A stretch of DNA of 55,618 nt, from assembly GCA_043820105.1 (NCBI GenBank), contig JBDREC010000001.1, positions 62,001 to 117,618 on the forward strand, given 5' to 3'. The notes below the pieces were generated by a model. It made no database searches and was not told the DNA's origin. It was given only the letters and a program-made list of their open reading frames with translations. Below are positions 1,549 through 55,618 of this stretch, piece by piece. Position numbers and translations under genes: made by a program. The first letter of the stretch is position 1, and every line of letters begins with the position of its first letter. Source of the stretch: Pseudomonadota bacterium. Its GTDB lineage: Bacteria; Bdellovibrionota_F; JAHFAK01; JBDREC01.

Positions 1549-1562
1549 AATTCGCCTTTCAT

Positions 1563-3749: not shown

Positions 3750-3764
3750 TAATTTTTCCTTAAA

Positions 3765-5189
3765 TTATTGTCCAGTTGGATAAACTTCATAAAGGTTAAA
3801 ATAATCTTTGAGGTCTTTGTTTGCTTCTCCTGCGTACTCCAGAATTTTTGGAGTTACAAAGATTAAAAACTGTTGTCTAGCAACATTTGTATCAAGAGTT
3901 TTGAAAAGGTTGAACATTCCGACAGCTTCATCTGGCTTGTCTGAGTCTGGTTGTCTGTCTTTTGAATATGTTCTTGAAGTTCTTATGATACCTCCAATTA
4001 CCACAGATTCGCCATTTCTAACAAACTGATGAGTTGTAAGATTATTAGTATCCATTGTAACATCGCCTTTTGCGGTTGGTTTTCCAAGACTGGATGCATT
4101 TACTGTAATGTTTAAATCAATATCATCTTTATAAACTGTTGGAGTAACTGAAAGAGTCATTCCAACATTTTTTGAACCCATTGACGCGGTTCCATTTGCC
4201 TGAGCAATTGGAATCATGATTTCTGTTCCAGAAAAAAGATTTGCGGATTTTCCTGATTTAACTGAAAGCATTGGGTTTTCAAGGTTTCTAACCAGACCAA
4301 TTGATTTCATATAATTTAGTCTTGGTATCAAAGATGAAAATTGTGCTGTTAAGGTGCCTGTAAATTGGGTTGACCCAGTTTGTGGATTCATGTTCATAAA
4401 GGCATTAGCGCTAGTTTCGGGAAAGGGGGCCCATTTAAATAAGAAATTTTTATCTATTGCTTTATTTAATACAACATAATGCACTGAAACCTGAATCATT
4501 TTTGCTCTTTCTGGAGGCTTTGATTCTTTTCTAACTTCAATAATGCTTTGAACCTTAGCTGGTGGCCAAAAAAGTTTAGCAATTTTTAAAGCTCTTTCTT
4601 CCTGGTCTTGTTGGTATACTTTTCCATCAAGAATCATCATATCTTTAAATGGTTTAACATAGACTTCAGCTAAGTCGATTTCATTTTCTATTTTCTTTGC
4701 AATAATTCTTTGTGCGTTTCTGGAAAGCTTAACAAGGTTTACAACAAAGGGAACATCTTTTACAACTTTGTCTACAGTCGCGAGATCTTCACTGAGAAAA
4801 ACCTCACCTTCAACAACAACTTTTGTTTCAACTTGATATATTTTTAAGCCTTCTACTGATGAAAGTATTTTTGTGAGCTCTTTTATGTATCGGTTTAAGT
4901 TTTTGGAGGATACTACAATGGTTATATTATCTCGTTGTTTTCCTGCATTATCATAAACCAAAACAGAAGTTTCACCTGCTGTGTTAGGAAAAAGTGTAAT
5001 TTTATTGGTTTTTCTGTCGACTTGAAAATTACATATTTGTGGATTACCGATATCAACTCTACCAATTTGAAAATTAAAATTCAAATTTTTGGGGGCGCCT
5101 TCAGTTAGGTACTGTGTTGGATAAGCGTTTAAGATAACAGGAACTAATATTAATATTGAAACAATAAAAATTTTTTTAAAAAAACTCAA
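3765..5189 (-). CDS. cpaC: Tad secretin (CpaC/RcpA-like) with pilus-formation N domain and BON-like domains
   Basis: Signal peptide, IGNPQI..GETSVLVY N domain, NPMLSVKSGKSA and VRNGESVVIGG...IFVTPKI secretin motifs; TTG start with GGAG RBS. Confidence 0.85.
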   Translation of the reverse strand: MSFFKKIFIVSILILVPVILNAYPTQYLTEGAPKNLNFNFQIGRVDIGNPQICNFQVDRKTNKITLFPNTAGETSVLVYDNAGKQRDNITIVVSSKNLNRYIKELTKILSSVEGLKIYQVETKVVVEGEVFLSEDLATVDKVVKDVPFVVNLVKLSRNAQRIIAKKIENEIDLAEVYVKPFKDMMILDGKVYQQDQEERALKIAKLFWPPAKVQSIIEVRKESKPPERAKMIQVSVHYVVLNKAIDKNFLFKWAPFPETSANAFMNMNPQTGSTQFTGTLTAQFSSLIPRLNYMKSIGLVRNLENPMLSVKSGKSANLFSGTEIMIPIAQANGTASMGSKNVGMTLSVTPTVYKDDIDLNITVNASSLGKPTAKGDVTMDTNNLTTHQFVRNGESVVIGGIIRTSRTYSKDRQPDSDKPDEAVGMFNLFKTLDTNVARQQFLIFVTPKILEYAGEANKDLKDYFNLYEVYPTGQ

Positions 5190-21546: not shown

Positions 21547-21562
21547 TGGCATAAAAGTTGCT
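21547..21562 (+). promoter_or_regulatory. sigma54 -24/-12 promoter
   Basis: tGGcataaaagttGCt. Confidence 0.6.
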
Positions 21563-27671: not shown

Positions 27672-27865
27672 GGGAAACTCCTTTTAAAAAAAATATTACA
27701 AATAAAAAAGATGCTACTTATATATCTTTTTGCTTTTATGGTCTAGATAAAAATCGAGATACAATTCAAGTTGACTTGAAATCACTTATATGAGAAAGGT
27801 CCATAATGAATTGATACATGCTTGCTTGGCATATTTTAATATTTATAAATATTAGTGAGGAAAAA

Positions 27866-28996
27866 ATGGCAGATGATAGAGTCATAGATTTAACAATTAA
27901 ATACCCAAATCTTATGAATGCACCTAAATCAGTTGATCTTTGTTTAACAGGACATTGCAATTTGAAATGTTCATACTGTTTTTATGCAGACAGTATGCAA
28001 GACAAGAAGGATTTAAACACTGAACAGTGGAAGGCTACAATTAAAGAACTTGGTGAAATTGGTGTGCAGGATGTTTGCCTGTCAGGTGGTGAAGTTTTTG
28101 TTAGAAAGGATTTTTGGGAACTTCTTGATAGTGTTATTGAAAACAGAATGAGATATTCTATTTTATCAAATGGAACTTTGATAACAGAAAAAACTATTGA
28201 AGAATTTGGAAAAGGCAAAAGAAGACTTAGAATGAATTCCATACAAGTTTCCATTGATGGATCATGCGCTGAAATTCATAATAAAAGCCGTCCTCATGAT
28301 AGCTTTGATAAGGCATTAAATGGTTTGAAATTACTTGTTAAAAACAAATTCCCAGCAACATGTAGATGCACAATCAATCATCATAATTATCATGATCTTG
28401 AAAATGTTGGAAAGCTTTTACTTGAAGAAGTTGGTTTAAGCTCGTTTTCAACAAATGAAGCAGAACAAATGGGAACTGCCCGTTGTAATGGACAAGATGT
28501 TGTTTTGTCAGTTGAACAAAGAACTCGAGCAATGAACGATCTTATGAATTTAAATGAAAAATATAAGGGAAGAATTCAAGCACAAGCTGGACCCTTAACT
28601 AGAGCCAAGGGTTTTAAAGAAATGGAAGCTTTAATTGAAAAGGGTGAACTAAAAATACCAGGAAGAGGAAATTTGGTTTCTTGTGGTGGCGTATTTTCAA
28701 AGATGGCTATTTTGCATGACGGAACAATGGTTCCTTGTAACATGCTTCATACCTTGTCAATGGGAACAGTTGGAATTAATTCAATTAAAGAAGCCTGGCA
28801 AAGACATCCTTCAATCAATGTAGTTAGAGATCGAAGAAAAATTTCATTAAGAGAATTTGAACAATGCAAAGATTGTGAATATGTTGAAATGTGCACAGGT
28901 GGCTGTCCAGCCTCGATTGCGGCTAGGTTTGATAAATTAAATGAGATTGATCCGCTTTCTTGTTATAAGGAATATTTGAAAGAGAAAAAGCTATAA
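27866..28996 (+). CDS. Radical SAM/SPASM maturase, SynChlorMet ScmE-like
   Basis: CNLKCSYC; SCGGVFSKMAILHDGTMVPC and CKDCEYVEMCTGGCPA SPASM motifs; GAGG RBS before ATG 27866. Confidence 0.8.
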   Translation: MADDRVIDLTIKYPNLMNAPKSVDLCLTGHCNLKCSYCFYADSMQDKKDLNTEQWKATIKELGEIGVQDVCLSGGEVFVRKDFWELLDSVIENRMRYSILSNGTLITEKTIEEFGKGKRRLRMNSIQVSIDGSCAEIHNKSRPHDSFDKALNGLKLLVKNKFPATCRCTINHHNYHDLENVGKLLLEEVGLSSFSTNEAEQMGTARCNGQDVVLSVEQRTRAMNDLMNLNEKYKGRIQAQAGPLTRAKGFKEMEALIEKGELKIPGRGNLVSCGGVFSKMAILHDGTMVPCNMLHTLSMGTVGINSIKEAWQRHPSINVVRDRRKISLREFEQCKDCEYVEMCTGGCPASIAARFDKLNEIDPLSCYKEYLKEKKL

Positions 28997-34853: not shown

Positions 34854-35756
34854 TTATGTAATTTCATTCTGAACAAAAATGTGCTTAAAGTCTTTTGTGC
34901 TTAAATAATCGATTGCACTTTCATATTCTGTGCTTTTTAATTTGCGATTAATTTCTGGATAATTTTCTGCTTTGTGAGCCGGAAAATATTGGCCCATAAG
35001 ACTAATCCCAATATCGTTTCCTGTAATTTTCTCTATAAAATCGATTGCCTCAATAGTTGAACTCAGTTTATTGGGAAGCACCATGTGGCGAATTAAAAGG
35101 CCTTTTCTTGCAAGGCCGTTTTTGAGTTTTATTCCTCCAACCTGTTTATACATTTCAATAATTGCTGTGCTAGCAATTTCTTTATAGTTATCAGCCTCTG
35201 AATACTTTTTTGCGAAAGTATCCTTCATGTATTTCAGGTCAGGCATGTAAATGTCAATTATGCCATTTAAAAGTTTTAAGGCAGCTAGCTTTTCATAGCC
35301 AGAGGAATTGTAAACAAGTGGAATTTTTAATCCTTCATTTTTTGCAATTTGCACAGCTTCAATAATTTGGAGTATCATGTGAGATGGGCTTACAAAATTA
35401 ATATTATGCGCGCCCCTTTTTTGCAGCTTAAGCATCATGGCAGCCAGTTGTTTAGCATTTGCAAATTCACCATTTCTATAATGACTGATAGGGAAATTTT
35501 GGCAATAGACACAAGCTAAGTTACAGCCAGAAAAGAAAATAGTGCCAGAGCCTAAATTACCTGAAATTATAGGTTCTTCTCCATGGTGTATGTTGTAGCT
35601 TGCTACTTTTGCATATTTGCCTGTCCCACAGATTCCCAATTCGCCTGCATTTCTATCCACCTTACATTCTCTGGGGCAAGCGTTACATGGACTAATTCCA
35701 ATGGATTCTGTGTTGATACCAGGGAATCCATTAATATTTAAAGTATTTTTTTCCAT
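34854..35756 (-). CDS. PflX-like radical SAM protein
   Basis: CNACPRECKVDR..GICG, HHGEEPIISG..GSGTIFFSGCNLACVYCQN, IDIYMPDLKY. Confidence 0.88.
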   Translation of the reverse strand: MEKNTLNINGFPGINTESIGISPCNACPRECKVDRNAGELGICGTGKYAKVASYNIHHGEEPIISGNLGSGTIFFSGCNLACVYCQNFPISHYRNGEFANAKQLAAMMLKLQKRGAHNINFVSPSHMILQIIEAVQIAKNEGLKIPLVYNSSGYEKLAALKLLNGIIDIYMPDLKYMKDTFAKKYSEADNYKEIASTAIIEMYKQVGGIKLKNGLARKGLLIRHMVLPNKLSSTIEAIDFIEKITGNDIGISLMGQYFPAHKAENYPEINRKLKSTEYESAIDYLSTKDFKHIFVQNEIT

Positions 35757-38332: not shown

Positions 38333-38450
38333 TTATATACCCTTTATGTAAAGTTATTATCAATTTGATTGAATTATATGTATTGTGGTCAATTTTCAAT
38401 GAAAGAATAGAAAACTGAGGAAAAATTTTATCTCAAGCCAAAATCATTCA

Positions 38451-38491
38451 CGCCCCCAATAGGAATCGAACCTATAGCTGAGGATTAGGAA
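38451..38491 (-). tRNA. 3' half of tRNA-Arg(CCT): island attachment-site duplication, not a full tRNA
   Basis: Minus strand TTCCTAA loop, TCCTC, ATAGG-TTCGATT-CCTAT T-arm, TGGGGGC-G acceptor; the 5' anticodon strand and D-arm are absent. Confidence 0.85.
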
Positions 38492-38721
38492 TTTGAACGG
38501 TTTGCGAGTATAAGGCTCTGTAATTTAAAGTTTTAAGCAATATTATTAACCAATTAACCATTGTTGTTACTTCATTCTATTTTTAGCTATTATTACGTAA
38601 TTTGAGGTATTGTTACGAGTAATTTACGAGGGAAAATGTGTGTTAAAATAATTTCACGGATATTATTGTTCTTGTTGTAACCCTAAATAATTATCAATCA
38701 ATAAAAAGTGCTAAAAACAAA

Positions 38722-42965: not shown

Positions 42966-45827
42966 ATGAACTTAATAGACCTTAACTACAATTCTGAATT
43001 GAAAAAATTTATTGACCAGGCAAAAACAGACAATCTCAAGACCAAGCATTTTCTTAACACATTTAATGATATTAGGATAAAGGTGAGTTTCGGCCAGGGT
43101 TCTGCTGCCAAAATTCCATGGATTGCCTTCCTGAAAGCGCCAAACACAGTCAGTGATGGGATTTATCCAGTTTACTTATTTTTCAAAGAGATTAACAAAC
43201 TTATACTAAGTTATGGTATTAGTGAAACAAATTCCCCTAAGCATAGTTGGAATATTGACCAAAAAATGCTAATTAAAGACTATTTTTTAGAGCATAATCT
43301 TGTAAATCCAGAACGCTATGGTGGTTCATACATATTCAAAGTGTACGATGTCAACAACATGCCCTCTGATGAGATATTAAACTCAGACCTATCTGAAATA
43401 TTGGAGTGTTACCGTTCTCAAAAATTTGAATTTGAGCCACCAAATAAGACTTGTTGGTTTGTAGGAGCCTCTTATAGTGATGCCAGCGAAGATCAAACTG
43501 ATCGATTTATTGATAACGGTATTTGGGAAAATGGATATGACGACAAGTATCTAGACTTAGTTCGCTCAATCAATGTTGGAGATCGGATTGCAATTAAATC
43601 AGCCTATACTCGTAAAAATAACTTATCATTTGATACTAATGGAAACATTGTATCTGTAATGGGAATAAAGGCAATAGGCGTTGTCACAAAAAACCATGGA
43701 GATGGAAAATCTATCGATGTGGACTGGGAACCACGATTAAACCCAGTTCGAGAGTGGTATTTCTATACTAATCGCTCAACAATATGGCGTGTTGTACCAG
43801 ATGAATGGATGTCCAAAGAACTTGTTAATTTCACTTTTAATAATGGCCCTCAAAGCATAAGTAAATTTAAAAACGCTCCCTTTTGGCAAGAAAGATTTGG
43901 TGATAAAAAAGAAAAAGAACAACGCTTCCAATGGACAGAATTTTATGAAGCCATAGCTAATAACATATTGGATTTCAAAGAAGATCGCTCAAAATTAATA
44001 TCTGAGATTCACAGGCTCTCTGCAAAATTCGATTGTATGAGCGTGTTAAATGATCATTTCATTGATGGATCAATTGGTTTACTTAAGGATATGTGCCCAT
44101 TTACAATTCTAGGTATTTTTAACCGGGGATTGACAGACAAAAATCGTCAACTGATAGCTAAAGAGCTTGCAACTTTTTTTAAGCTAGATATTCCAGCACC
44201 AGAAACATTTTTGGGAATACCTGTTCTTAATAATCAGCAGTCTTGGTTTTTTGCTTATGAAAATAAAAGAGAAAAATATGACATAGATAAACTCTGGGAT
44301 TTCTTCGAAACAGCAATAAACTTTTCTGATGAACAAGAAGATAACCTAAAAAGTACATTTATAAACAAGTATGATGAGGTTAATAATGTCAGAGGTGTGG
44401 GTTGGAATATCACAATGGGCTTGTATTGGATAAGACCCTGGTTTTATTTAACTCTTGATAGTCGCTCACAAAAATACATATCTGAAAGATTAGGGTTTGA
44501 AATACGTAAATCATCACCAAAAGGTCGATGCACTGGAACTGAATACATTAGCTTGTTAGATGAAATAAGCACGCGATTTAAGGAAGAAGCATATCCCGCG
44601 CATTCATTTCCAGAATTATCATTAAATGCATGGAAATCAGAGTACACTAGTGCTGAAAAGGATATTCAAACCTGGAAAAGCCTGGTATATCAAAAGATCA
44701 AAGAGCTTTGTGAAGAAAAAAACGACAGTTTATTCTCGATGCAAGAATTTCTAAATAAATACCAAAATGATTTTCAAACACTTTATCCCAGCAATAATAC
44801 TATTCAGGCTTCATTGGCTCGCAATTTGCAACTCTTACGTGATGAGGACCTAATTGAGTTTCTAAGCAATGGGCAATATCAATTGCTTGATTATACTGTA
44901 GATTCAGTTGAAGAATTTATTGCTTTACCAATACAACATGAACCATATAACCTAGAAAGTATTATTTCAGATGGATGTTTTCTTGAAACAAAAGAGCTAA
45001 AAATGATCCTTGAACGATTATATCAAAAGAAAAATATTATTCTTCAAGGCCCTCCAGGTACAGGAAAAACATGGCTGGCTAAGCGTTTAGGCTATGCTTT
45101 GATTGGATTTAAAAATGATGAAAAGTTAAAAGCTGTACAATTTCACGCAAACCTTTCATATGAAGATTTTGTTCGTGGCTGGCGCCCTTCTGCAGAAGGT
45201 AAACTTGCCTTAATAGATGGACCCATACTTGAAATTATTAGTGCTGCAAAAAAAGACGCAGAAACAAAACATGTTATTATTATTGAAGAAATAAACCGAG
45301 GAAACCCTGCGCAAATATTTGGAGAAATGTTAACGTTGCTTGAAGCTGACAAGCGTACACCAAGCGAAGCACTGGAGCTTAGTTATAGAAGAAATGAAAG
45401 TGAGCGTTTTTTTATTCCTAACAACCTTTATGTAATAGGAACCATGAATATTGCAGACAGGTCTTTGGCATTAGTTGATTTGGCTTTAATGAGAAGATTT
45501 GCTTTCATAAGTCTCAAACCAACATTTGGCCAACCCTGGAGAAACTGGGTTCACGAAAAATCTGGTATAGATATGCATATTCTAGAATCAATAGAACAAA
45601 GAATACTTAAGTTAAATTCTGAAATCGAAAGTGATAAAAATCTAGGACCTCAATTTAAAATTGGACACAGCTATGTAACTCCAGCTTTTAGCAATACTAT
45701 AAACGATCCATTAACATGGTACAAAGGTGTAGTCTCAACAGAGATTGCACCACTACTAAGTGAATATTGGTTTAATGATCCAGATCAAGCTAGAAAGGCA
45801 AAAGAAAAGTTGGTTGAAGGTCTTTGA
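42966..45827 (+). CDS. mcrB: McrB-family AAA+ GTPase with multiple N-terminal DNA-binding domains
   Basis: GPPGTGKT, YEDFVRG, IIEEINRG, MNIADRS, D.ALMRRF, IGHSY. Confidence 0.93.
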   Translation: MNLIDLNYNSELKKFIDQAKTDNLKTKHFLNTFNDIRIKVSFGQGSAAKIPWIAFLKAPNTVSDGIYPVYLFFKEINKLILSYGISETNSPKHSWNIDQKMLIKDYFLEHNLVNPERYGGSYIFKVYDVNNMPSDEILNSDLSEILECYRSQKFEFEPPNKTCWFVGASYSDASEDQTDRFIDNGIWENGYDDKYLDLVRSINVGDRIAIKSAYTRKNNLSFDTNGNIVSVMGIKAIGVVTKNHGDGKSIDVDWEPRLNPVREWYFYTNRSTIWRVVPDEWMSKELVNFTFNNGPQSISKFKNAPFWQERFGDKKEKEQRFQWTEFYEAIANNILDFKEDRSKLISEIHRLSAKFDCMSVLNDHFIDGSIGLLKDMCPFTILGIFNRGLTDKNRQLIAKELATFFKLDIPAPETFLGIPVLNNQQSWFFAYENKREKYDIDKLWDFFETAINFSDEQEDNLKSTFINKYDEVNNVRGVGWNITMGLYWIRPWFYLTLDSRSQKYISERLGFEIRKSSPKGRCTGTEYISLLDEISTRFKEEAYPAHSFPELSLNAWKSEYTSAEKDIQTWKSLVYQKIKELCEEKNDSLFSMQEFLNKYQNDFQTLYPSNNTIQASLARNLQLLRDEDLIEFLSNGQYQLLDYTVDSVEEFIALPIQHEPYNLESIISDGCFLETKELKMILERLYQKKNIILQGPPGTGKTWLAKRLGYALIGFKNDEKLKAVQFHANLSYEDFVRGWRPSAEGKLALIDGPILEIISAAKKDAETKHVIIIEEINRGNPAQIFGEMLTLLEADKRTPSEALELSYRRNESERFFIPNNLYVIGTMNIADRSLALVDLALMRRFAFISLKPTFGQPWRNWVHEKSGIDMHILESIEQRILKLNSEIESDKNLGPQFKIGHSYVTPAFSNTINDPLTWYKGVVSTEIAPLLSEYWFNDPDQARKAKEKLVEGL

Positions 45828-46939
45828 TGGAATCTATTGCTGTAGAAAAACAATCGAAGGATATTTCAACAAGGCTACTTGGAAAAATACCAGTTCGAAA
45901 CATTTGGTTATTAATGCTTTATGCTTCTAACTTGTACCGTCAACAAGGTTCTAATCAAGTAGCAATTGATGAAAATCCAGATAAAATTGCCGATCTAGTT
46001 GCTGAAATACTCTGCCATCAAGTTGAACAACGTTTATTTAGAAATCTCACATATGGATACCAAAACAAAACAGGTGAACTTACTCGGATTAGAGGCCGAA
46101 TAGATGCTCTATTTACTGAAAGTCATAGGTTGATGGAAAGAGGTAAGATTTGTTGCAAATATGACATGTTGACGGTTGACACACCAAGAAACCAATATAT
46201 TAGAGCAGCATTAGACCATATCAGTTCACTTGTATTTAACAAAGAACTTTCATGTAAATGTTGTCTATTAGCCAAAAGACTTCACAATATTGGTGTTTCC
46301 AAAAGCTTTCCTTATGGTTATAGCACTAGTCGTGAAAGATTTAATTGTAACGATGCAGAGGATAATAAAATGGTATCGGCAGCAGAGTTAGCTTTTTCAC
46401 TAGCTCTGCCTACAGAGTTTTTTGGGCGAACTTTATTACCAATACCAGACAAAAATATAGAATGGCTTCGTAAATTATTTGAAAAAGGAATCGGTGGTTT
46501 TTACTCTGCTGTGCTAGATAGGTCTAGATGGAATGTATTAACAGGAAAGCAGTTTAATTGGCAAATATGTAGCAAGACCAACGGAATGGATAAAATACTT
46601 CCTAGCATGAAAACAGATATAATCATTGACAATCAGGATACTGGTAATCGACTAATAATTGATACAAAATTTAATGAGATTACAACCAAAGGCTGGTACC
46701 GTACAGAGTCTCTAAGAAATACCTATTTATACCAAATGTATACTTATTTAAGAAGTCAGGAAAATATAGATGATCCTCAGTCACTCGCAACAAGTGGTAT
46801 GTTACTGCACCCTTCTATTGATAGAGATTATGATGAAAGTGTAACAATCCAAGGTCATCTTATCAGGTTTTGTACAGTTAATCTTGGGCTTGATGCTTTT
46901 AAAATAAAAGAAAGATTACTTCATTTATTAAAACAATAA
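45824..46939 (+). CDS. mcrC: McrC restriction endonuclease subunit
   Basis: IPVRNIWLLMLYA, RIRGRID, LFEK, TDIII..IIDTKF, YLYQMYTY; overlaps mcrB stop. Confidence 0.93.
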   Translation: MMESIAVEKQSKDISTRLLGKIPVRNIWLLMLYASNLYRQQGSNQVAIDENPDKIADLVAEILCHQVEQRLFRNLTYGYQNKTGELTRIRGRIDALFTESHRLMERGKICCKYDMLTVDTPRNQYIRAALDHISSLVFNKELSCKCCLLAKRLHNIGVSKSFPYGYSTSRERFNCNDAEDNKMVSAAELAFSLALPTEFFGRTLLPIPDKNIEWLRKLFEKGIGGFYSAVLDRSRWNVLTGKQFNWQICSKTNGMDKILPSMKTDIIIDNQDTGNRLIIDTKFNEITTKGWYRTESLRNTYLYQMYTYLRSQENIDDPQSLATSGMLLHPSIDRDYDESVTIQGHLIRFCTVNLGLDAFKIKERLLHLLKQ

Positions 46940-46949
46940 TATTCTAAAA

Positions 46950-47174
46950 TTAATCCAAAAAATTAGACAGTTTTACTTTAAAAATTTTGCTTATCTTAAA
47001 AACAGTGTATAGTGAAGGACTATGTTTGCCAGATTCAAGTTTTTGAAAGTGTCGATAATTAAAGCCATATTTAGAGGCAAATTCTTCTTGCGATATACTC
47101 TTAGCTTTTCTCAGCTTCTGTATATTCTTTGCTATTCTAACTAATAGCTTTTCGTAATCTTGTTCTTGGTTCAT
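46950..47174 (-). CDS. XRE/HTH_3 transcriptional regulator
   Basis: NIQKLRKAKSISQEEFA...LESGKHSPSL. Confidence 0.85.
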   Translation of the reverse strand: MNQEQDYEKLLVRIAKNIQKLRKAKSISQEEFASKYGFNYRHFQKLESGKHSPSLYTVFKISKIFKVKLSNFLD

Positions 47175-47189
47175 TTCATCTTTATATAA

Positions 47190-47229
47190 TATACGAACTT
47201 TCTTGACCACGTACTATTTAGTTCGTATA
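47190..47229. promoter_or_regulatory. Inverted-repeat operator between divergent genes
   Basis: TATACGAACT-N20-AGTTCGTATA perfect 10-bp inverted repeat. Confidence 0.55.
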
Positions 47230-47865: not shown

Positions 47866-49380
47866 ATGAAGTATAAATTTATTATAATTATTTGCTTGTT
47901 TTGTCCTAGCTTCCTAATGGCTAATGATAAGCCATCTTGGACTAATAAAAGCTCCTGGCAAGAAAGCGAATATAAATACTATGTTGGTGTAAGCTCAAAT
48001 AACAAGACAGAAGAGGATGCAAGAAGAAAAGCCTATGAAAATGCCATCAACGAACTTGTTCAAAGCTCATTTGGCGGAATCCTTAAAATTGATATAAAGT
48101 CATATCAGACAATAAAAGATACTAGTTTCTATAGGGATATTTCATTTGAAGTTGATAGGGTTAATATTAGTGGCGTTGAAAGCATGGATATATATATTGA
48201 AAAAGATAAAAAAAAATATACCTGTTGGCGGCTATTAAAAATTTCAGACCTGGAAGTAGACAAAGAAAGAAACAGATTAAAAGATGCGTTGAAACTTGAA
48301 GGCAATAAGAAAGACATAACAAACATGTCTGATAATATTATTGGATTTAAAAATAAACATTCAAAGACAACAGGTAGTCTAAAAATTACAACATCTCCTG
48401 CAAGAGCTGAAATATACTTAAATGGGGAACCAATTGGATTTTCAAATATTTTGTTTGGTAAAATTTGGCCAGGTGAATATGAGCTATTAATTGATAAAAA
48501 AAGCTATAAGCCAATAAAACGTAAAGTTATCATTGCAAGTGGTATTAAGTCTAATTTAAATATAAAACTAGAAAAAGAAAAGGGTACTATAAAGATAGAA
48601 TCAAATGCTCCTAAAACTGAGATATTTGTGAATAATAAGTATGCTGGATTAGCGCCTACAAGTGTTAATCTTCCAGTCGACAGCTATAATATAAGGCTTG
48701 AGGCGATAGGATATTATCCATTAAAAGTAAAAGTTAAAGTATATCCCAATTACACAGAAGTGAAAAAACTTAATCTGGAACCTATTCCAGCTAAGTTGAC
48801 AATACTTTCTGATCCTGAATCAGCTAATGTTTTTACTTCAGAAATGAAAATGATTGGTAAGACTCCACTTAAAGGGCTAGACTATATGCCTGGAAAGCAT
48901 AAATTATTGATAACAAAAGATGGCTTTGAAAATCAGACAGTCCAAGTAAGCTTAGAACCAGGAAGGGGGAGCTCATACAAAGAAACCTTAGTCCCTGTTG
49001 ATAGTTTATCATTCAATGAAATTTCAACCGAATCAGAAAATGAGTTAATTGATAATCCTTCAGAGTACAAGGGGTGCAGGTTTATTAGCATATTGTTTTA
49101 CGGAACCAGTCTTGCATCAGGAATCATTGGAGCGATATCTGTTTTTGATGCAATTGAAGCCAAGGAAGATTATAATAACGCTAGTTCTGCTAGTACAGCT
49201 TCTTCTTATAGGGAACAAACTGAATCTGCTACTGAAAGAGCTTATATACTAGGGAGTGTTTCGGTTTTTTCTATGGCAATGGCATTAACTCTGGAAATAT
49301 TTGTTTTGCCAAAATATATGAAACCAACTGCTTTTCTAACAAAAGACTTTAAAGGAGTAATGTTAACATATGATTTTTAA
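47866..49380 (+). CDS. LPP20-like N domain plus three PEGA domains and C-terminal hydrophobic segments
   Basis: KPSW..YYVGVS; ITTSPARAEIYLNG, IESNAPKTEIFVN, ILSDPESANVF PEGA repeats. Confidence 0.85.
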   Translation: MKYKFIIIICLFCPSFLMANDKPSWTNKSSWQESEYKYYVGVSSNNKTEEDARRKAYENAINELVQSSFGGILKIDIKSYQTIKDTSFYRDISFEVDRVNISGVESMDIYIEKDKKKYTCWRLLKISDLEVDKERNRLKDALKLEGNKKDITNMSDNIIGFKNKHSKTTGSLKITTSPARAEIYLNGEPIGFSNILFGKIWPGEYELLIDKKSYKPIKRKVIIASGIKSNLNIKLEKEKGTIKIESNAPKTEIFVNNKYAGLAPTSVNLPVDSYNIRLEAIGYYPLKVKVKVYPNYTEVKKLNLEPIPAKLTILSDPESANVFTSEMKMIGKTPLKGLDYMPGKHKLLITKDGFENQTVQVSLEPGRGSSYKETLVPVDSLSFNEISTESENELIDNPSEYKGCRFISILFYGTSLASGIIGAISVFDAIEAKEDYNNASSASTASSYREQTESATERAYILGSVSVFSMAMALTLEIFVLPKYMKPTAFLTKDFKGVMLTYDF

Positions 49381-49933
49381 TAAAATATTAAAAACACTTT
49401 TTGTTTTAATAATATCTTTATTTTGTTTTGCCACCTGTTTAAGTGGTGAATTTGATAATCCTAATGATCCTGATTCTGATGATTACAATGGTAGCTCAGG
49501 GACTTTTGGTGACGGTGATGGAGATGGAGACGGAGACGGTGACGGTGATGGCGATGGTGATGGTGATGGTGATGATGTTCCTTCTTGTGGCGGGGAGAGT
49601 ACCACCTTTCCTTTTGAAGTTGGCCAAACAGGCATTATAACAAATTGCCTATCGGTTAGACTTAATGACTATGATTACAATTCCCATGTTACAGATGATA
49701 TTACCTTAAAAATAACAAACTCTACACAGCACATAATAAGTTATTTGAATTATTCTGTTTACGTTAGAGATTCGAGTGATATTGAGATAGCTTGGGATGA
49801 AAATAGATATACCAATACTGACATTGAAGTCGGCAGTTTTTCAATTTTTGAATTAACTTCCCTGGATGGTGATATCAATACTAATGGTGATACTTTAGAA
49901 TTCATGATTAATGATATTACTTTCTATGAATAG
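49370..49933 (+). CDS. Lipoprotein-like protein with (Gly-Asp)n linker
   Basis: Signal with FATC, DNPNDPD motif, about 11 GD units. Confidence 0.75.
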   Translation: MIFNKILKTLFVLIISLFCFATCLSGEFDNPNDPDSDDYNGSSGTFGDGDGDGDGDGDGDGDGDGDGDDVPSCGGESTTFPFEVGQTGIITNCLSVRLNDYDYNSHVTDDITLKITNSTQHIISYLNYSVYVRDSSDIEIAWDENRYTNTDIEVGSFSIFELTSLDGDINTNGDTLEFMINDITFYE

Positions 49934-50017: not shown

Positions 50018-50500
50018 ATGCAACAAAAAGACACACAATTTAAACCTACACCTAATATGCTGAAGTTGCTTGAAGCCGCTATTAATCCTGATGTAGCTCC
50101 AAATTTTTCAGCATGGTGTAAAGAATCAAATGTAGCACGCAGCCAGTGGTACAGATGGCAGAAACAGACTGGATTTCTTGAGTGGTTTAACAATGAATAT
50201 TCTAGGTCTTTGGAAGGTGCTAGAGCAGCACTTGTAAAAGTTGGTTTGCAAAAGGCATTAAGTGGTGATTTTCAGTTTTGGAAGGTAATGGTGGAAAAGC
50301 TTAACGAGTACAATCCTAAGATCCAGGCAGATTTGAATCATAAAGTAGAAGCGGATTGTCATGAAATTATGGTCCAGTCATATGAAACTGGGGAAGTAGT
50401 ACAGATACACCATTGTTGTGCAAACAAAGACCATGAACAAAAAATTATATGGAAAAAGAATGATGATGTTAAAGGAAAAGCCTTAATATCTAAAGATTAA
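50018..50500 (+). CDS. Terminase-small-subunit-like / phBC6A51-type HTH protein
   Basis: CKESNVARSQWYRWQK..GF..W HTH followed by QKALSGD motif; AGGAGG RBS. Confidence 0.65.
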   Translation: MQQKDTQFKPTPNMLKLLEAAINPDVAPNFSAWCKESNVARSQWYRWQKQTGFLEWFNNEYSRSLEGARAALVKVGLQKALSGDFQFWKVMVEKLNEYNPKIQADLNHKVEADCHEIMVQSYETGEVVQIHHCCANKDHEQKIIWKKNDDVKGKALISKD

Positions 50501-50521: not shown

Positions 50522-51778
50522 TTAATTTATTTGATGAGAATTATTTTTCAGATCTCTTTTTAGTCTTGTATAGGTATCAGAACTTATTTTTAACTTGTTC
50601 ATTATTTCTTTTCTAGTATATTTTTCACTAAGCAGGTGATTAAACCAGCGCAATTCAAAAATTCTTTTGCCTCTTTTAATATCTAATTTAAAAATATCAT
50701 TTATTTCAAATGGTATTTTTGGAATTGCTTGGTTATTAATTATGGAACTTTTATTAATTGAATTGGCAATATTTTCTAGTACCTCGCTAACATTGGGGGG
50801 TGCTTGCTCTTCAAAAAGTGAGGTTGCTTGATAAATTTCACTTTCATGTTGGCTTAGCAATTCTTTCTCCAGAAGCTGGAGAAAGATGTCTCCATATTCC
50901 ACGATTTTATTATTAATCAAATCATCAAGTTTAATTATTTCATCTTCATTTAAATATAGCCAATCGTCATTACTTAAATTGTAGTGTTTCGAGAAGTAAC
51001 TATTTGCTGTTAGGACTGTTGGTGTTTCTGAGATATCTAAAGGCAATGTGCTAATTTTATATTTATTCGGGTCAATGGACTTGCTTTTTAGTTTAAAATG
51101 AGTTGCAGGTGTAATCTCTTCCAGTATTCTAAGAAATTCTCGAATATTGCCTTTATACTCTAACTCATTTATTAGTATATCCCATAGAGTTGACGATAAA
51201 TAATCAATTCCATTTTGCTTTAAATACTCTATTAAAAAATATTTAATATCTAGTTTTCTAAACTTCAGAGGAAATATTTTTACTATTACTTCAAACCTAT
51301 CAACTAAATCACCTCTTAGTGATGAAATTTTATTAGTGGCTGCAATAAATTTAAAATCTTTAAATTTTTCAACTTTGGTGCTACCTATTCTAGAGAACTC
51401 TTTGTTTTGTAATAATCTCAAGATGCCAGATTGATTTTCTTCAGGCATATCACCAATTTCATCGAATGCTATGTTTTTCCCTTGTTCTACTAATCCAATT
51501 ACATCTTTGATCGCTCCAGTATATGCTCCTTTATCAGCTCCAAATAGTTCGAGTGTTAATGATGAGCTGGGTTGAGCACAATTGATAGTAACCCATTCTT
51601 CCTTCCCGTCAGTGATTTCAGTTCTTTGATTTATATAGAAGTTCATAAATATTTCTTTTCCAACACCTCTTTTGCCAACAAACAGAACTGTTTCACCGCA
51701 ATTTGCAGCTTCTATAGTTTTTTCCTTACTAGAGACTGCAGTGTGAGATCTCAATATATAGTCATTGAATTTAATCAT
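50522..51778 (-). CDS. sigma54 enhancer-binding AAA+ activator lacking an N-terminal sensory domain
   Basis: GKRGVGKE, INCA, ELFGADKGAYTGA, FDEIGDM, LRLLQ, IAATN, GNIRE; C-terminal Fis-like HTH. Confidence 0.88.
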   Translation of the reverse strand: MIKFNDYILRSHTAVSSKEKTIEAANCGETVLFVGKRGVGKEIFMNFYINQRTEITDGKEEWVTINCAQPSSSLTLELFGADKGAYTGAIKDVIGLVEQGKNIAFDEIGDMPEENQSGILRLLQNKEFSRIGSTKVEKFKDFKFIAATNKISSLRGDLVDRFEVIVKIFPLKFRKLDIKYFLIEYLKQNGIDYLSSTLWDILINELEYKGNIREFLRILEEITPATHFKLKSKSIDPNKYKISTLPLDISETPTVLTANSYFSKHYNLSNDDWLYLNEDEIIKLDDLINNKIVEYGDIFLQLLEKELLSQHESEIYQATSLFEEQAPPNVSEVLENIANSINKSSIINNQAIPKIPFEINDIFKLDIKRGKRIFELRWFNHLLSEKYTRKEIMNKLKISSDTYTRLKRDLKNNSHQIN

Positions 51779-51893
51779 AATATAATTAAAAATAATTGTT
51801 AATAATTATTATTATTTAACATTTGTTTTGTGGAAAATCAATCGAATTGTAATTGTGCTAATGATATCAGTACATTATGTGTGGATTGTGGGT

Positions 51894-51909
51894 TGGCACC
51901 TATCTTGCT
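51894..51909 (+). promoter_or_regulatory. sigma54 -24/-12 promoter
   Basis: TGGCACctatcTTGCt, divergent from the activator and upstream of 51953. Confidence 0.8.
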
Positions 51910-51952
51910 TTAAAGATAAGTATTATCAATTCTCATAGAAAGGGATTATACT

Positions 51953-52177
51953 ATGAAAGTAAGTAAAGCATTAATTACTGCTTATAAAACTTCAAAGATT
52001 AAAGGTTATAAAATTGCCCAAAAAGCAAAACTAAATCCTTCTACATTTTTTCAGATAATGAATAGCATCATACCTATTAAATATGAAGATGAAAGAGTTT
52101 TAAGGATTGCAATGGTTCTTGGAGTTGTAGCCAAAGATGCCTTTGAAAAAGTAAAGGAGGATAAAGTTGAAAAGTAA
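51953..52177 (+). CDS. Small Cro/XRE-like HTH protein
   Basis: YKIAQKAKLNPSTFFQIMN...RIAMVLGV. Confidence 0.7.
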   Translation: MKVSKALITAYKTSKIKGYKIAQKAKLNPSTFFQIMNSIIPIKYEDERVLRIAMVLGVVAKDAFEKVKEDKVEK

Positions 52178-52595
52178 AAAGGACGATCTTTTTATACCCC
52201 CAAAAGAAGATGAATTAGTTTTAGTTCCAGATGGTATTTATAAAGCAAGGTGCCTTGAGGGTAAACCAGTAAATTTTTATTCTCAAAGGAAGGTAAAATT
52301 AGATTTTATAATGGTCGATCTTGGAGAACAGTATGGAAAGAAGATTCCATTGTTTCTTAATATAGCACCCAAAGGCAAAAGGAATATTTCTTCAGGATCA
52401 TTCTATTATCTTTATTGGATAATTGCCAACAGAGGAGAAAAGCCAACTCGGCGAGATAGAATGACACCAGAAAAATTTAAAGACAAATTATTCAAAATTA
52501 AAACTAGAACTGTGAGTAAGAATAGAAAACAACAAAAATTACCTAAGAGTATGTGGCATTCTGTAGTAGACGCAATATTGGAGCTAATTGAGTGA
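52167..52595 (+). CDS. Phage-type OB-fold/SSB-like protein (DUF669-like)
   Basis: LVPDGIYKA...KVKLDF..GEQYGKKI pattern; AGGAGG RBS. Confidence 0.5.
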   Translation: MKSKKDDLFIPPKEDELVLVPDGIYKARCLEGKPVNFYSQRKVKLDFIMVDLGEQYGKKIPLFLNIAPKGKRNISSGSFYYLYWIIANRGEKPTRRDRMTPEKFKDKLFKIKTRTVSKNRKQQKLPKSMWHSVVDAILELIE

Positions 52596-52639
52596 TGATA
52601 GTAATGGTGAATGGAAGTGTGAAGGTTAGATAATATCTC

Positions 52640-52829
52640 ATCTTATCTAATCTTATCTTTTTCTATCTTATCTAATCTTATCCTAGTAACCCAATCACAT
52701 AGAGGGTGTGATTACTGGGATGTGGAGAATTTGATGTCAGCATGCAGGTCTGAAATATGATCTGCGCTTATGGCACTTTTGGGTGCCTATAAATTAAATA
52801 GTTGGGCACTCTCTAGCGGGGGTGCCCAA
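52640..52829. other. Iteron-like direct repeats followed by four hairpins (candidate origin or structured RNA)
   Basis: ATCTTATCTAATCTTATC at 52640 and 52665; stems at 52680-52721, 52744-52765, 52768-52792, 52802-52829. Confidence 0.55.
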
Positions 52830-52846
52830 TCCAAATTGAGGTAATA

Positions 52847-52871
52847 ATGAATGATGAAAAACATATGACAC
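52847..52871 (+). pseudogene. 5' stub of a gene interrupted by IS21 (possibly excisionase-type HTH)
   Basis: GAGGT RBS, ATG, MNDEKHMT, then the IS end begins. Confidence 0.45.
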
Positions 52872-53020
52872 TGCCAATCGGATTGAAAACTGGTCCACGA
52901 ATCGGACGCAAAAGTGGTCCACCTAGCCCAAAAATTTTTATCTAAAATTTTTATAAAAATTGCAACTCATAAATTAAAACTCCTTACATTAATATGTTAA
53001 AAATAATGAAACCAGTAATA

Positions 53021-53141
53021 AGGTTATCCACATGAGCAAAAATGCTATAGGCAAATATATAATGTTTGGGGCTAGGGCCATTAATAGCCCAGAAGCCCCA
53101 TCTACATTTGCCTGTGGCATTTTTGATCTTGTGGATAACCT
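53021..53141. repeat. Long palindrome inside IS21 bounded by inverted TTATCCACA boxes
   Basis: aggttatccaca...tgtggataacct with nested stems. Confidence 0.75.
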
Positions 53142-53180
53142 GGGCTTGATCTCCATCTATTACCCTGTTAATTCAAATAG

Positions 53181-53930
53181 TTATTTTTTCATCGCTTCCT
53201 TATGTGCTTTTGCCCTATAACTTTCTCCTTTTATCGATATTATCTGTGAATGATGAATCAATCTATCTATTATTGCTGATGCCAGAACTGGATCAAATAA
53301 TATGTTTCCCCAATCTTCAAACGGTTTATTTGATGTTATTATTATTGAGGAGTTTTCATATCTTTGATTTATTATTTCAAAAAGATCATCCACTGCATTT
53401 TGTGTAAACTTTTTAAATCCAAGTTCATCTATTATCAGTAAATCAGGTTTTTTATATTCTTCTATTTTTTTATAATATGAGCCATCTGCCCTTGATTGAT
53501 AAAGTTCCTGTATTAAATCATAGGCAGTTGTAAACAAAACCTTGTATCCTTTTAATAATGCTTTAAATCCTATAGCTGTAGCAAGATGAGTTTTTCCTGT
53601 ACCAGGTTTTCCTAAGAATATTATGTTTTCTTTTTTATACATAAATGAACATGTTGCTATATTCAATATTTGTGATTTGCTTACGCTTGGTTGAAAAATA
53701 AAATCAAAATCTTCTACTTTCTTTTGTCCTGTTTTGCTTATCTTTGATTTTGACATTCTCTTTCTCAGTGAATTGTTTTTTCTTGATAATTCTTCCTCAT
53801 CAAGGAGCTGATTTAAAAACTCCAAATGTGATATTTTCCCCTCTTTTACTGTTTCGATAATATCTTCCAATGACTTTGAAATTCCTGCCAACTTGAAATT
53901 TGTTAATTTCTTTTTAACTTCTTGTATCAT
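53181..53930 (-). CDS. istB: IS21 helper ATPase IstB
   Basis: FDFIFQP, GKPGTGKTHLA, LLIIDELG, IIDRLIHH, GESYR. Confidence 0.97.
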   Translation of the reverse strand: MIQEVKKKLTNFKLAGISKSLEDIIETVKEGKISHLEFLNQLLDEEELSRKNNSLRKRMSKSKISKTGQKKVEDFDFIFQPSVSKSQILNIATCSFMYKKENIIFLGKPGTGKTHLATAIGFKALLKGYKVLFTTAYDLIQELYQSRADGSYYKKIEEYKKPDLLIIDELGFKKFTQNAVDDLFEIINQRYENSSIIITSNKPFEDWGNILFDPVLASAIIDRLIHHSQIISIKGESYRAKAHKEAMKK

Positions 53931-53956
53931 AATTATTACCTCCTTTATTTTAATGT

Positions 53957-55450
53957 TTAATGAAGTTCATCGTATTTGCTTAAATCACTTTTGTAATACG
54001 CACTCTCTTTTTTTGAATCCATATTTTCCATATCAAACAGCTCATTTTCACGTATATATTTCTGGCTCAATATGTTTTTTATACATTTGTAACTGTAATT
54101 TTCATACTGAGTCGCTCTAAAACATGCATTTTCAAGCTTAACCCTACCATGCTTTTTGCCCAAAGAAATTATTCCCTGAATCATTCTGTAGGCCTCACAA
54201 TCTTTTTCAGAGAATAATTGCTGACAATAATTGTACACAATGTCTCCATATTTTTTCGCAGTGCTCATATAATATTCATAACTATTTGAACTTATAAGTT
54301 CGATCCATTCTGGAAAATGGCTTGCATGTTTAACCTTTTCTCCTGTTGAATTCGCGCGCTTATGAGTGTGAATTAGTTCTAAATTTCTATTATAAACCTT
54401 GATATAATTATTTGATTTTTGTGCATAAAGTTTTTCTCCAACATAGCTATATGGAGCTGAATATAAGGATTTATCTATCCTCAAATAGCAGTCAGGATGC
54501 AATTTATGCTTGGTCCATTCACTTGTATCAAAAATTTCAAATGGAAGTTTGTGCAATTTATTCTTTTCTTCATTTTCAAAAACTTCACCTGGAACCTTCT
54601 TGGTGGTGCCATGGATTCTTAAAGATTTTTCTTCCATCCATTTTCTTGATTTTTCTTTGCAATCATTTATATCTTTAAAAGTCCGACCTGCCATAAAATT
54701 ATTTTTGAAATATTTTATGCCGTTTTCCACCATTGCCTTATCTTTTGGTTTATAAGGTCGGCAAGTATTTGGTAGAAAATTATAATGTTTTGAAAATTCT
54801 AAATATTCTTTCTGGTAGGTCGGATCATAAAAATTTGCTTCCAAAACCCCTGCTTTTAGATTGTCAATGGTAACTTTTTTAGGGACTCCTCCAAAATGCA
54901 AAAACGCATTTTCATGACAGTTTATAAAAGTTTTTACTTTTTGATCTGTAACTATTTCAAAATAATCATACCTCGAATAAGCTAATCTCATGCAAAATAC
55001 ATAACTCTTTTTCATTTTCCCTTCATAAGGGTTATGTAATAATCCAACATATCCAAAATCGACATAAGCTTCATCTGCAGGAATATTATGATCAAATACA
55101 GGATATATCTGATTTGCTACCCTAAGCTTTTTCATATATTTTCTTACAGCATCATATTTATATTTAAATTCTTTCTCGTCCCTAAGCTTCTCCCAAATCC
55201 TTAAAGATGATAGTTTTGGTTCCTTATCTAGATAACTCAAAATGGTATCCTTATAATTTTCTACAACACTTACTTTTTCAATAACTGGATTTAATGAATT
55301 TTCACCTCTTTTCTTGTAATCCTTAATTATTTTATTCACCGTTGTTCTGGATATTTTTAAATCCTTTGCAATTTGTCTTGCTGATTTTCCAGCTTTTTTT
55401 AATGTAATAATCGTAATCCTCTCTGCCATTGTTTTCATCCCTTTCTCCAA
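53957..55450 (-). CDS. istA: IS21 transposase IstA
   Basis: N-terminal HTH, YVDFG, LAYSR, FGGVP..IDNLK, KDKAMVE, RIHGTT, YSAPY. Confidence 0.97.
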   Translation of the reverse strand: MEKGMKTMAERITIITLKKAGKSARQIAKDLKISRTTVNKIIKDYKKRGENSLNPVIEKVSVVENYKDTILSYLDKEPKLSSLRIWEKLRDEKEFKYKYDAVRKYMKKLRVANQIYPVFDHNIPADEAYVDFGYVGLLHNPYEGKMKKSYVFCMRLAYSRYDYFEIVTDQKVKTFINCHENAFLHFGGVPKKVTIDNLKAGVLEANFYDPTYQKEYLEFSKHYNFLPNTCRPYKPKDKAMVENGIKYFKNNFMAGRTFKDINDCKEKSRKWMEEKSLRIHGTTKKVPGEVFENEEKNKLHKLPFEIFDTSEWTKHKLHPDCYLRIDKSLYSAPYSYVGEKLYAQKSNNYIKVYNRNLELIHTHKRANSTGEKVKHASHFPEWIELISSNSYEYYMSTAKKYGDIVYNYCQQLFSEKDCEAYRMIQGIISLGKKHGRVKLENACFRATQYENYSYKCIKNILSQKYIRENELFDMENMDSKKESAYYKSDLSKYDELH

Positions 55451-55618
55451 AATTTTATTTATAATCTTGTGGCTTGTAAATTTATTATAAATTTACTTCC
55501 CAAATATCCCTTTTATAAATACTTAATTTTGGCTTCCTTCAATATTTTATTATTTTTACTTTGGTAGGTGGACCACTTTTGCGTCCGATTACTGGACCAG
55601 TTTATCGTCCGATTTGCA

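Follow-up and report, generated by a model that had tools for sequence, protein, structure and literature searches.

A mobile island in the genome of a Pseudomonadota bacterium (GTDB lineage Bacteria; Bdellovibrionota_F; JAHFAK01; JBDREC01) carries its own gene for a sigma54 activator, a bacterial enhancer-binding protein (bEBP), next to a divergent sigma54 promoter. The locus lies at 50522-52871 of the stretch of DNA analyzed here, referred to as the window, which spans positions 62,001 to 117,618 of the forward strand of contig JBDREC010000001.1 (C1) in assembly GCA_043820105.1 and is 55,618 nt long; positions given without a contig name are positions of the window. We read the locus as the control region of the island, in which the element-encoded bEBP would switch on the genes behind the sigma54 promoter and, before an insertion sequence intervened, probably those for excision and integration as well, and we give this reading a probability of about 0.5. 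A sigma54 promoter is silent without its ATPase activator, so an element that brings its own bEBP would have a near-silent off-state and a sharp on-state. The lineage is thinly represented in GTDB, where the class holds four genomes and the family holds the source genome only.

The bEBP gene (50522..51778, minus strand) encodes 418 amino acids, arranged as an AAA+ domain at the N-terminus, about 145 residues without a confident fold and a putative C-terminal three-helix helix-turn-helix (HTH). Residues 12-150 match the Pfam Sigma54_activat family (PF00158) at 2.4e-27, with 96.1 bits at a cut-off of 20.2. The NCBIfam results are domain-level matches to many named bEBPs, all of them far under the full-length cut-offs. 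The motifs were checked against 13 homologues from databases and the solved chains of FleQ, NtrC1 and PspF, and in the alignments the catalytic set is complete: Walker A (GKRGVGKE), the GAYTGA loop, Walker B (FDEIGD), the ATNK sensor I region, both arginines of the R-finger region and sensor II (GNIRE). The GAYTGA variant of the loop is ordinary in the source genome, where it occurs in 4 of 27 bEBP loop motifs. In the alignment the AAA+ domain begins at about residue 4-20, which leaves the protein without an N-terminal sensory domain. About 195 residues lie C-terminal to the AAA+ lid. In a single-sequence AlphaFold2 (AF2) model the last ~45 residues form three helices with a predicted local distance difference test score (pLDDT) of 70-85, residues 224-370 have no confident fold and most of the C-terminal half is poor (mean 48.2). 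Sequence matches to the HTH are weak (Trp_repressor 0.0014 and HTH_28 0.08, both below cut-off; phrog_36 2.6e-4). The protein is an intact, element-encoded bEBP, with ATP-dependent activation of an RpoN promoter as its predicted activity.

This bEBP is an orphan. Among 5.8 billion proteins its best non-self match reaches 34% identity over 61% of the query, and among 1.84 billion representatives its C-terminal half matches itself and one repeat protein (P0122) only. No relative of the C-terminal half was found in the other three genomes of the GTDB class, nor any relative of orf142, an open reading frame (ORF) behind the promoter, and the PLSDB matches to the bEBP are all generic. Nor was it recently copied from a host paralogue, as the best high-scoring segment pairs within its own genome are 30-38% identical. 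Another bEBP of the genome, near an integrase on contig C6, was also considered, but it is an ordinary response regulator accompanied by its kinase.

The promoter (TGGCACCTATCTTGCT; 51894-51909, plus strand) was located by a consensus scan and is an exact -24/-12 match, TGGCAC-N5-TTGCT. Its GG and GC dinucleotides are exactly 10 nt apart, it stands upstream of a gene and the genome has rpoN. A distance of 116 bp separates it from the start codon of the bEBP gene, which is on the opposite strand. Distances relative to the promoter are based on an estimated transcription start at ~51921, which puts the ATG of the first gene, orf74, 33 nt downstream. In the 3.8-Mb genome, whose base composition predicts about 1.2 exact sigma54 sites, there are 69, and an ORF begins no more than 200 nt downstream of 57 of them; there is one rpoN gene, with 29 bEBP loci besides that of the island. 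Thus, the match at 51894 is of the kind used by the host. In the window itself, eight sites with at most one mismatch were found where 1.63 were expected, a count reached in none of 100 shuffles. The site at 51894 is the only intergenic one of these within the island; the other island site, 44815, is inside mcrB. A candidate enhancer, the AT-rich dyad TGTTAA-N13-TTAACA (51797..51821), is seen in the sequence centered about -111 from the estimated start. The genome has seven such TGTTAA/TTAACA dyads with N10-14, and the one at -111 may be there by chance. TTGTGG repeats upstream of the promoter may be a second, putative bEBP-binding site. An earlier, sequence-only reading of the window had reported a bEBP with GAYTGA loop and Walker A and B motifs, lacking a sensory domain and divergent from a near-consensus sigma54 promoter. 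All of the protein features are intact in the alignments, and the promoter matches the consensus exactly.

Further sigma54-type sites precede ORFs in the host flank, at 21547, 29873, 33948, 35983 and 37444, of which 33948 (minus strand) and 37444 (plus strand) are exact. Nearby are radical-SAM/SPASM genes (27818-28996 and 34854-35756) and ORFs that match no family; these may form a peptide-modification cluster under sigma54 control.

The bEBP and the promoter belong to an island of about 16.2 kb, excluding an insertion sequence (IS), that extends from 38493 onward and is inserted in tRNA-Arg(CCT). The intact tRNA gene is on a partner contig, C67 (locus L001), at 2000-2073 of the minus strand, 77 nt beyond a tyrosine integrase gene (int, C67 760-1923; PF00589 3.2e-23, phrog_1 1.3e-61). 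The distal attachment repeat (38441..38492) is a 52-bp copy of the 3' half of the tRNA plus 9 nt, in the same orientation as C67 1991-2042, a segment that overlaps the tRNA gene and is identical at 51 of the 52 positions. The island therefore has an integrase adjoining a tRNA and a partial direct repeat of that tRNA at its far end, as tRNA-integrated islands do. Contig C1 has no integrase and the window has no tRNA, so that the island cannot be recognized from the window alone. On C67 the integrase gene overlaps that of an excisionase (xis; HTH_17, 7.5e-11), which starts 5 nt after a Cys-rich ORF. These three genes, tightly packed with a 5-nt gap or an overlap, are co-directional with the genes behind the promoter, and the whole string (orf74, orf142, a spacer, the Cys-rich ORF, xis and int) ends at the tRNA. 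The promoter at 51894 is the only recognizable start of this string. A search with an integrase alignment returned nothing in the genome contig collection and 14 loci only in metagenome contigs, which at 21-43% identity are too distant for the same element family.

The string is divided between the two contigs by an IS21-family element (52872-55618, minus strand; istB 53181-53930, istA 53957-55450), which runs antisense to the operon and stops exactly at the contig end. Its proteins match Pfam IstB_IS21 (2.6e-79) and, for IstA, rve (5.7e-11). Ends 100% identical to those of this IS occur at about 17 other contig ends or copies; the assembly is therefore broken there, and many of its breaks are explained by IS21. 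The identical ends also suggest a recent expansion. In the window, the IS interrupts the head of the Cys-rich ORF, a putative zinc-ribbon gene with two CxxC-type repeats, after eight codons plus 1 nt (52847-52871, plus strand, with a GAGG ribosome-binding site ahead), and the ORF resumes in frame at C67 147-514. The left flank of the IS ends in GACAC, and of the eight contigs that open with the right end of the IS, GACAC continues in C67 only; four other left/right contig pairs of the genome also show 5-bp IS21 target duplications. Three independent lines thus tie the window to C67, namely the GACAC duplication, the in-frame split ORF, which is homologous to that of a sibling island, and the 52-bp tRNA repeat; the link is inferred from these. 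Since the IS sits after codon 8 of the Cys-rich ORF, the promoter is now cut off from xis and int, and in the present genome excision is no longer drivable from 51894, whatever the original wiring. The sequence-only reading had taken the ORF at 52847 for a xis stub. That assignment is rejected, as these are the first eight codons of the Cys-rich ORF and the real xis is on C67 with int. Its placing of the locus in the core of a mobile element agrees with the ~16.2-kb island, the 52-bp tRNA repeat and the xis and tyrosine integrase genes at the tRNA end.

The sibling, island B, adjoins the 5' side of the same tRNA-Arg(CCT) (C67 2074-7806) and shares the Cys-rich ORF, xis and int module with the island of the window (island A) at 44%, 54% and 50% identity, respectively. 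Its string opens with a 163-amino-acid HTH_3 protein, whose gene is divergent from a 934-amino-acid primase-like gene. The promoter between them is a near-consensus sigma70-type promoter (TTGACG, 17 nt, TG-TATAAT; 11/12), and no sigma54 consensus is present in this intergenic region. Because the single strong promoter of island B sits before the first HTH gene, this element family starts its xis-int string in the divergent intergenic region. In island A the sigma54 promoter and the bEBP occupy the place of the sigma70 promoter of island B, which is the best support for the idea of a switch, although it is positional only. Each island thus seems to use a different half of the one tRNA gene, with an overlap at the anticodon stem-loop, and a 42-nt copy of the 5' half of the tRNA is found on contig C16 (28668-28709).

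An element-encoded bEBP with an adjoining sigma54 site is also found in viral contigs. When IMG/VR was scanned with an alignment of 14 bEBPs, 98 contigs were found, of which 80 were kept, and together with one further contig, L099, 81 loci were examined. A complete bEBP ORF was present in 68 of them, and 45 of these ORFs are 310 amino acids or shorter and consist of the AAA+ domain only. A sigma54 site was counted when it had at most one mismatch, kept GG and GC, and lay on the strand of the bEBP gene, from -60 to +500 nt relative to its stop codon. Such a site follows 41 of the 45 small ORFs (38 of them within 50 nt) and only 2 of the 23 larger ones; the background is 0.09 sites per kb, counting both strands. 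The 45 small proteins form 10 clusters at 50% identity, and 6 of the 10 clusters have the site. Examples among loci L100-L179, 240-290 amino acids long, are those of L157 (9884-10677) and L136 (9785-10680). In these two contigs, which were annotated, helicase genes precede the bEBP, and genes for an exonuclease, a Sak4-like annealing protein and a DNA polymerase follow the promoter. The small phage bEBPs match phrog_7998, which is listed in PHROGs as "unknown function" and is also matched by the island bEBP (3e-13), by L099 and by two database proteins, P0006 and P0023. No isolated phage in INPHARED has a close relative; the matches there to the small phage bEBP and to P0006 come from host genomes catalogued as phage, or from fragments that lack annotation. 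The small bEBP and the site downstream of it look like a means, so far undescribed, of controlling phage middle genes through sigma54.

Longer sensor-less proteins resemble that of the island more closely in architecture. P0006 and P0023 have 414-424 amino acids and share with it a 7-residue deletion after ATNK; their C-terminal extension is long and ends in an HTH-like segment. L099 encodes a 435-amino-acid sensor-less bEBP, which along its whole length is 41% identical to P0006. Its gene has an integrase/toxin-antitoxin/XRE block on one side and DnaD-like, primase/helicase and terminase genes on the other. The identity of the island bEBP to this group is 32-43% and confined to the AAA+ domain. 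Scanning the genome contigs with an alignment of three bEBPs gave 80 loci, all of the generic bEBP type and none close to P0006 or P0023. In a quick free tree P0006, P0023 and L099 form a clade (SH-aLRT 98). A tree constrained to unite the island bEBP with these three is not rejected by the approximately unbiased test (p-AU 0.761), and its log-likelihood exceeds that of the quick free search by 27.8 units.

The two genes directly behind the promoter would be its immediate targets. They have been described as a Cro-like HTH gene and a gene for a single-strand-binding (SSB)-like protein, and both likenesses come from the ESM Atlas only, by features and template modeling (TM) score, and are to be taken as leads, not as family assignments. 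The first, orf74 (51953-52177, plus strand), resembles XRE/Cro-C1-type HTH proteins (0.97, 198 shared features, TM ~0.7) and has no hidden Markov model (HMM) match in Pfam or PHROG. The second, orf142 (52167-52595, plus strand), is DUF669-like (0.95), with a TM of 0.80 against unnamed viral clusters and of 0.63 against one whose members are 89% DUF669. Even at E<=10 no Pfam or other HMM matches it, PF05037 included, and it has no relative in a word search of 5.8 billion proteins or in INPHARED (tblastn, E<=1); its AF2 model is poor (pLDDT 38.8). DUF669 proteins are described as phage single-strand-binding proteins in two papers (PMC4889955; PMC13687109).

Behind orf142 follows a spacer of about 250 bp (52596-52850) in which the repeat and hairpin region of the sequence-only reading was recovered. 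It contains an iteron-like cluster (52627-52682) of 4-5 copies of ATCTTATCTA at ~10-bp (helical) spacing, one of them inverted, and then three consecutive G+C-rich hairpins without U-tracts (52683..52846, plus strand), a putative origin or regulatory spacer. The fold is more stable than expected (z = -5.4), a stability reached in 0 of 200 shuffles. Rfam gave no credible match to the spacer, the sole result being a sub-threshold small Cajal body-specific RNA. A simple intrinsic-terminator scan found no terminator-like site on the plus strand from the promoter to the IS, nor across C67 1-2000. A sigma70-like match at 52734-52761 scores 9/12; 16 such matches were found, where shuffles give a mean of 13.9.

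The proposed switch would work as follows. The bEBP would bind DNA upstream of the promoter through its C-terminal HTH, and its ATP hydrolysis would open the otherwise silent complex of the RpoN holoenzyme at 51894. The activated promoter would then be transcribed into orf74 and orf142 and, by read-through, into the Cys-rich ORF, xis and int. The replication-associated genes would remain off unless the activator is made or released, and before the arrival of IS21 the same was probably true of xis and int. As the bEBP has no receiver, GAF or PAS domain, its control point must be the transcription of its own gene or a partner acting in trans, and such a partner could bind at residues 224-370. 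With IS21 now between the promoter and xis-int, the switch, if excision was its target, would be disconnected. The parts of this proposal differ in strength. That this bEBP drives the promoter at 51894 we consider likely, whereas we give somewhat less than an even chance to the sigma54 transcript having once reached xis and int, and sigma54 control of excision accordingly stays putative.

Several observations weigh against the proposal. The strongly structured spacer ahead of the Cys-rich ORF (z = -5.4) could stop transcription or hold an internal promoter, so that the sigma54 transcript may end after orf142. Any of the 29 other genomic bEBP loci could supply an activator that serves the promoter. 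The bEBP, orf74 and orf142 have no close relatives in the collections searched, so that the arrangement may not be conserved, and the toleration of IS21 means that the link from promoter to xis-int is dispensable for persistence of the island. The pairing of bEBP and promoter is a prediction from sequence, the enhancer site is a candidate, and the C-terminal DNA-binding HTH is weakly supported. The comparison with the longer proteins is also imperfect: the sigma54-like site of L099, in the gap after its bEBP, has two mismatches, the free tree puts the island bEBP on a very long branch (2.25) outside the phage-linked group, and the constrained grouping may partly be a product of long-branch attraction.

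The spacer is also the starting point for a narrower explanation, in which control by the bEBP and the sigma54 promoter stops at orf74 and orf142, taken as a small module for replication, recombination or immunity with its iterons, while a separate promoter, within the spacer or beyond it, serves the Cys-rich ORF, xis and int, and excision is independent of sigma54. The three strong hairpins within 250 bp and the sigma70-like match at 52734-52761 would suit this explanation, but the hairpins have no U-tracts and the terminator scan calls none, and a match of 9/12 is no better than in shuffles. The phage contigs also favor it, since there the genes behind the sigma54 site are those for replication and recombination and not integrase genes, and so does the toleration of IS21 between the two halves. 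The equivalent string of island B, however, has a single strong promoter before its first HTH gene. We regard the narrower explanation as possible, at well under even odds.

A different objection concerns the activator. A host bEBP might serve the promoter, with the 418-amino-acid protein being cargo or acting elsewhere and the divergent arrangement a coincidence. The 29 other bEBP loci and 69 consensus promoters of the genome make a host activator conceivable, the enhancer is a candidate, and several further sigma54 sites lie just beyond the island. Nevertheless, bEBP genes commonly adjoin their targets, the site at 51894 is the sole intergenic sigma54 site of the island, and 41 of the 45 small viral loci likewise combine a mobile-element bEBP with a neighboring sigma54 site, which makes a host activator improbable. 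The island might also be a decaying, immobilized remnant with drifting orphan ORFs and a promoter match that has no function. The operon is indeed interrupted by IS21, the bEBP is on a very long branch with an unalignable C-terminal half, and no relatives were found in the collections searched. Yet the ORFs are all open over their full length, the bEBP retains each of its catalytic motifs, the promoter fits the consensus exactly, the attachment repeats differ at 1 of 52 positions, and the identical IS ends suggest that the expansion was recent; decay has little chance of being the explanation. Both of these are less likely than the restriction of the switch to orf74 and orf142, because the pairing recurs in other mobile elements and the motifs and ORFs are intact.

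Returning to the element-encoded switch, its activator can be placed among described bEBPs. Sensor-less bEBPs include PspF of Escherichia coli and HrpR/HrpS of Pseudomonas syringae, which are controlled in trans by PspA or HrpV; HrpR/S carry the GAYTGA variant. Like them, the island bEBP has the AAA+ domain at the very N-terminus, no receiver, GAF or PAS domain and, putatively, a C-terminal HTH, and PspF chains align to its residues 14-255 at 4e-15. It differs from them in the ~145 extra residues between the AAA+ lid and the HTH, in the location of its gene on a mobile island and in its predicted target genes, which are for DNA handling and recombination and not for envelope stress or secretion. 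PspF and HrpRS have their PspA or HrpV partner, whereas no PspA- or HrpV-like partner was identified for the island bEBP. The small phage bEBPs of phrog_7998 are similarly encoded by mobile elements and adjoin a consensus sigma54 site before replication and recombination genes. However, they have 240-290 amino acids, the AAA+ domain only and no DNA-binding domain, their promoter is downstream of the bEBP gene on the same strand while that of the island is divergent, and their contigs are lytic-looking, with helicase and DNA polymerase genes and no integrase in the two annotated. L099, P0006 and P0023 share with the island bEBP a length of 414-435 amino acids, the absence of a sensor, the 7-residue deletion after ATNK and the long C-terminal extension. 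The L099 gene is, as in the island, beside an integrase and an XRE gene and upstream of replication genes, but there all genes are co-directional, unlike the divergent bEBP of the island.

The element can likewise be compared with known integrative elements. Phage-inducible chromosomal islands (PICIs) of Gram-negative bacteria are positively controlled by AlpA, and lambda-type phages use CI/Cro switches. Both resemble the island in being tRNA-integrated and in having int, an AlpA/HTH_17-type excisionase, a terS-like gene, a divergent decision region and a Cro-like first gene. Their switches act on sigma70 promoters with repressors or simple activators, whereas the promoter class of the island demands an ATPase activator. 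No helper phage, capsid-remodeling gene or primase/replicase gene was found for the island. The activator is thus a bEBP of the PspF/HrpRS type with an extra segment and the element is an ordinary tRNA-integrated island with defense cargo; it is the wiring that is unusual.

Decision circuits of phages, satellites and islands have been described as repressor/antirepressor or simple-activator circuits on sigma70 promoters. No paper on a bEBP switch encoded by a phage, satellite or island turned up in our literature search, which left most subscription journals and supplements outside. In the available text of PMC9601964 the sole mention of RpoN is in the title of a reference. If the switch is real, the element depends on host rpoN, which would be a new kind of host-range determinant. 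The same logic occurs, unannotated, in dozens of uncultivated phage contigs and points to an unrecognized class of phage middle-gene control, and compact, orthogonal activator/promoter pairs could potentially be obtained from such elements. The island is a single, IS-disrupted orphan example from a poorly sampled lineage and should be taken as a lead rather than a demonstration, although the phage parallel makes it more than a one-off. A broader proposal, rather unlikely as it stands, is that mobile elements repeatedly adopted sigma54 as a leak-proof, self-supplied switch, in which bEBPs made early or on induction open promoters before replication genes and, in islands, excision genes. The family would consist of the AAA+-only phrog_7998 form and a long sensor-less form with an HTH, and the present island would be the first integrative element whose choice to stay or leave is set by an ATP-driven activator and not by a repressor.

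The remainder of the island contains a McrB-like GTPase (953 amino acids) and McrC (371 amino acids) as cargo (42966..46939, plus strand; AAA_5 4.7e-25, MrcB_N 8.8e-17, McrBC 4.4e-20), together with genes for an S-adenosylmethionine (SAM) methyltransferase, an HNH protein and lipoproteins. Next to mcrBC is the gene of an 86-amino-acid XRE-type HTH protein (46950..47210, minus strand; HTH_3 6.8e-10), which matches the regulator/repressor families phrog_8 and phrog_3 and is a second possible repressor. The sequence-only reading had the activator standing in place of a CI repressor. The bEBP is present, but the island also encodes two XRE-type HTH proteins, this one and orf74, and an island without any repressor-type protein is therefore rejected. 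Convergent with the bEBP gene is that of a 160-amino-acid small-terminase-like HTH protein (50018..50500, plus strand; phrog_24579 1.6e-8; HTH_Tnp_1_2 1.5e-4, below cut-off). Of the traits of a PICI-like satellite, the island has an integrase, iterons and this terS-like ORF. For the label of satellite, which had also been proposed, the terS-like ORF is the only basis, and no primase, replicase or capsid gene is present among the island ORFs scanned.

Two minor observations concern other coding regions. In the lipoprotein operon of the island, a 187-amino-acid lipoprotein-like ORF (49370-49933) with a (Gly-Asp)n run stands beside a PEGA-domain protein (47866-49380). On contig C6, in locus L002 (C6 30000-49999), adjacent ORFs of 487 and 640 amino acids at 1137-4435 of the locus resemble by eye an amidotransferase pair of the archaeal GatD/GatE type; in a bacterium such a pair would be unusual.

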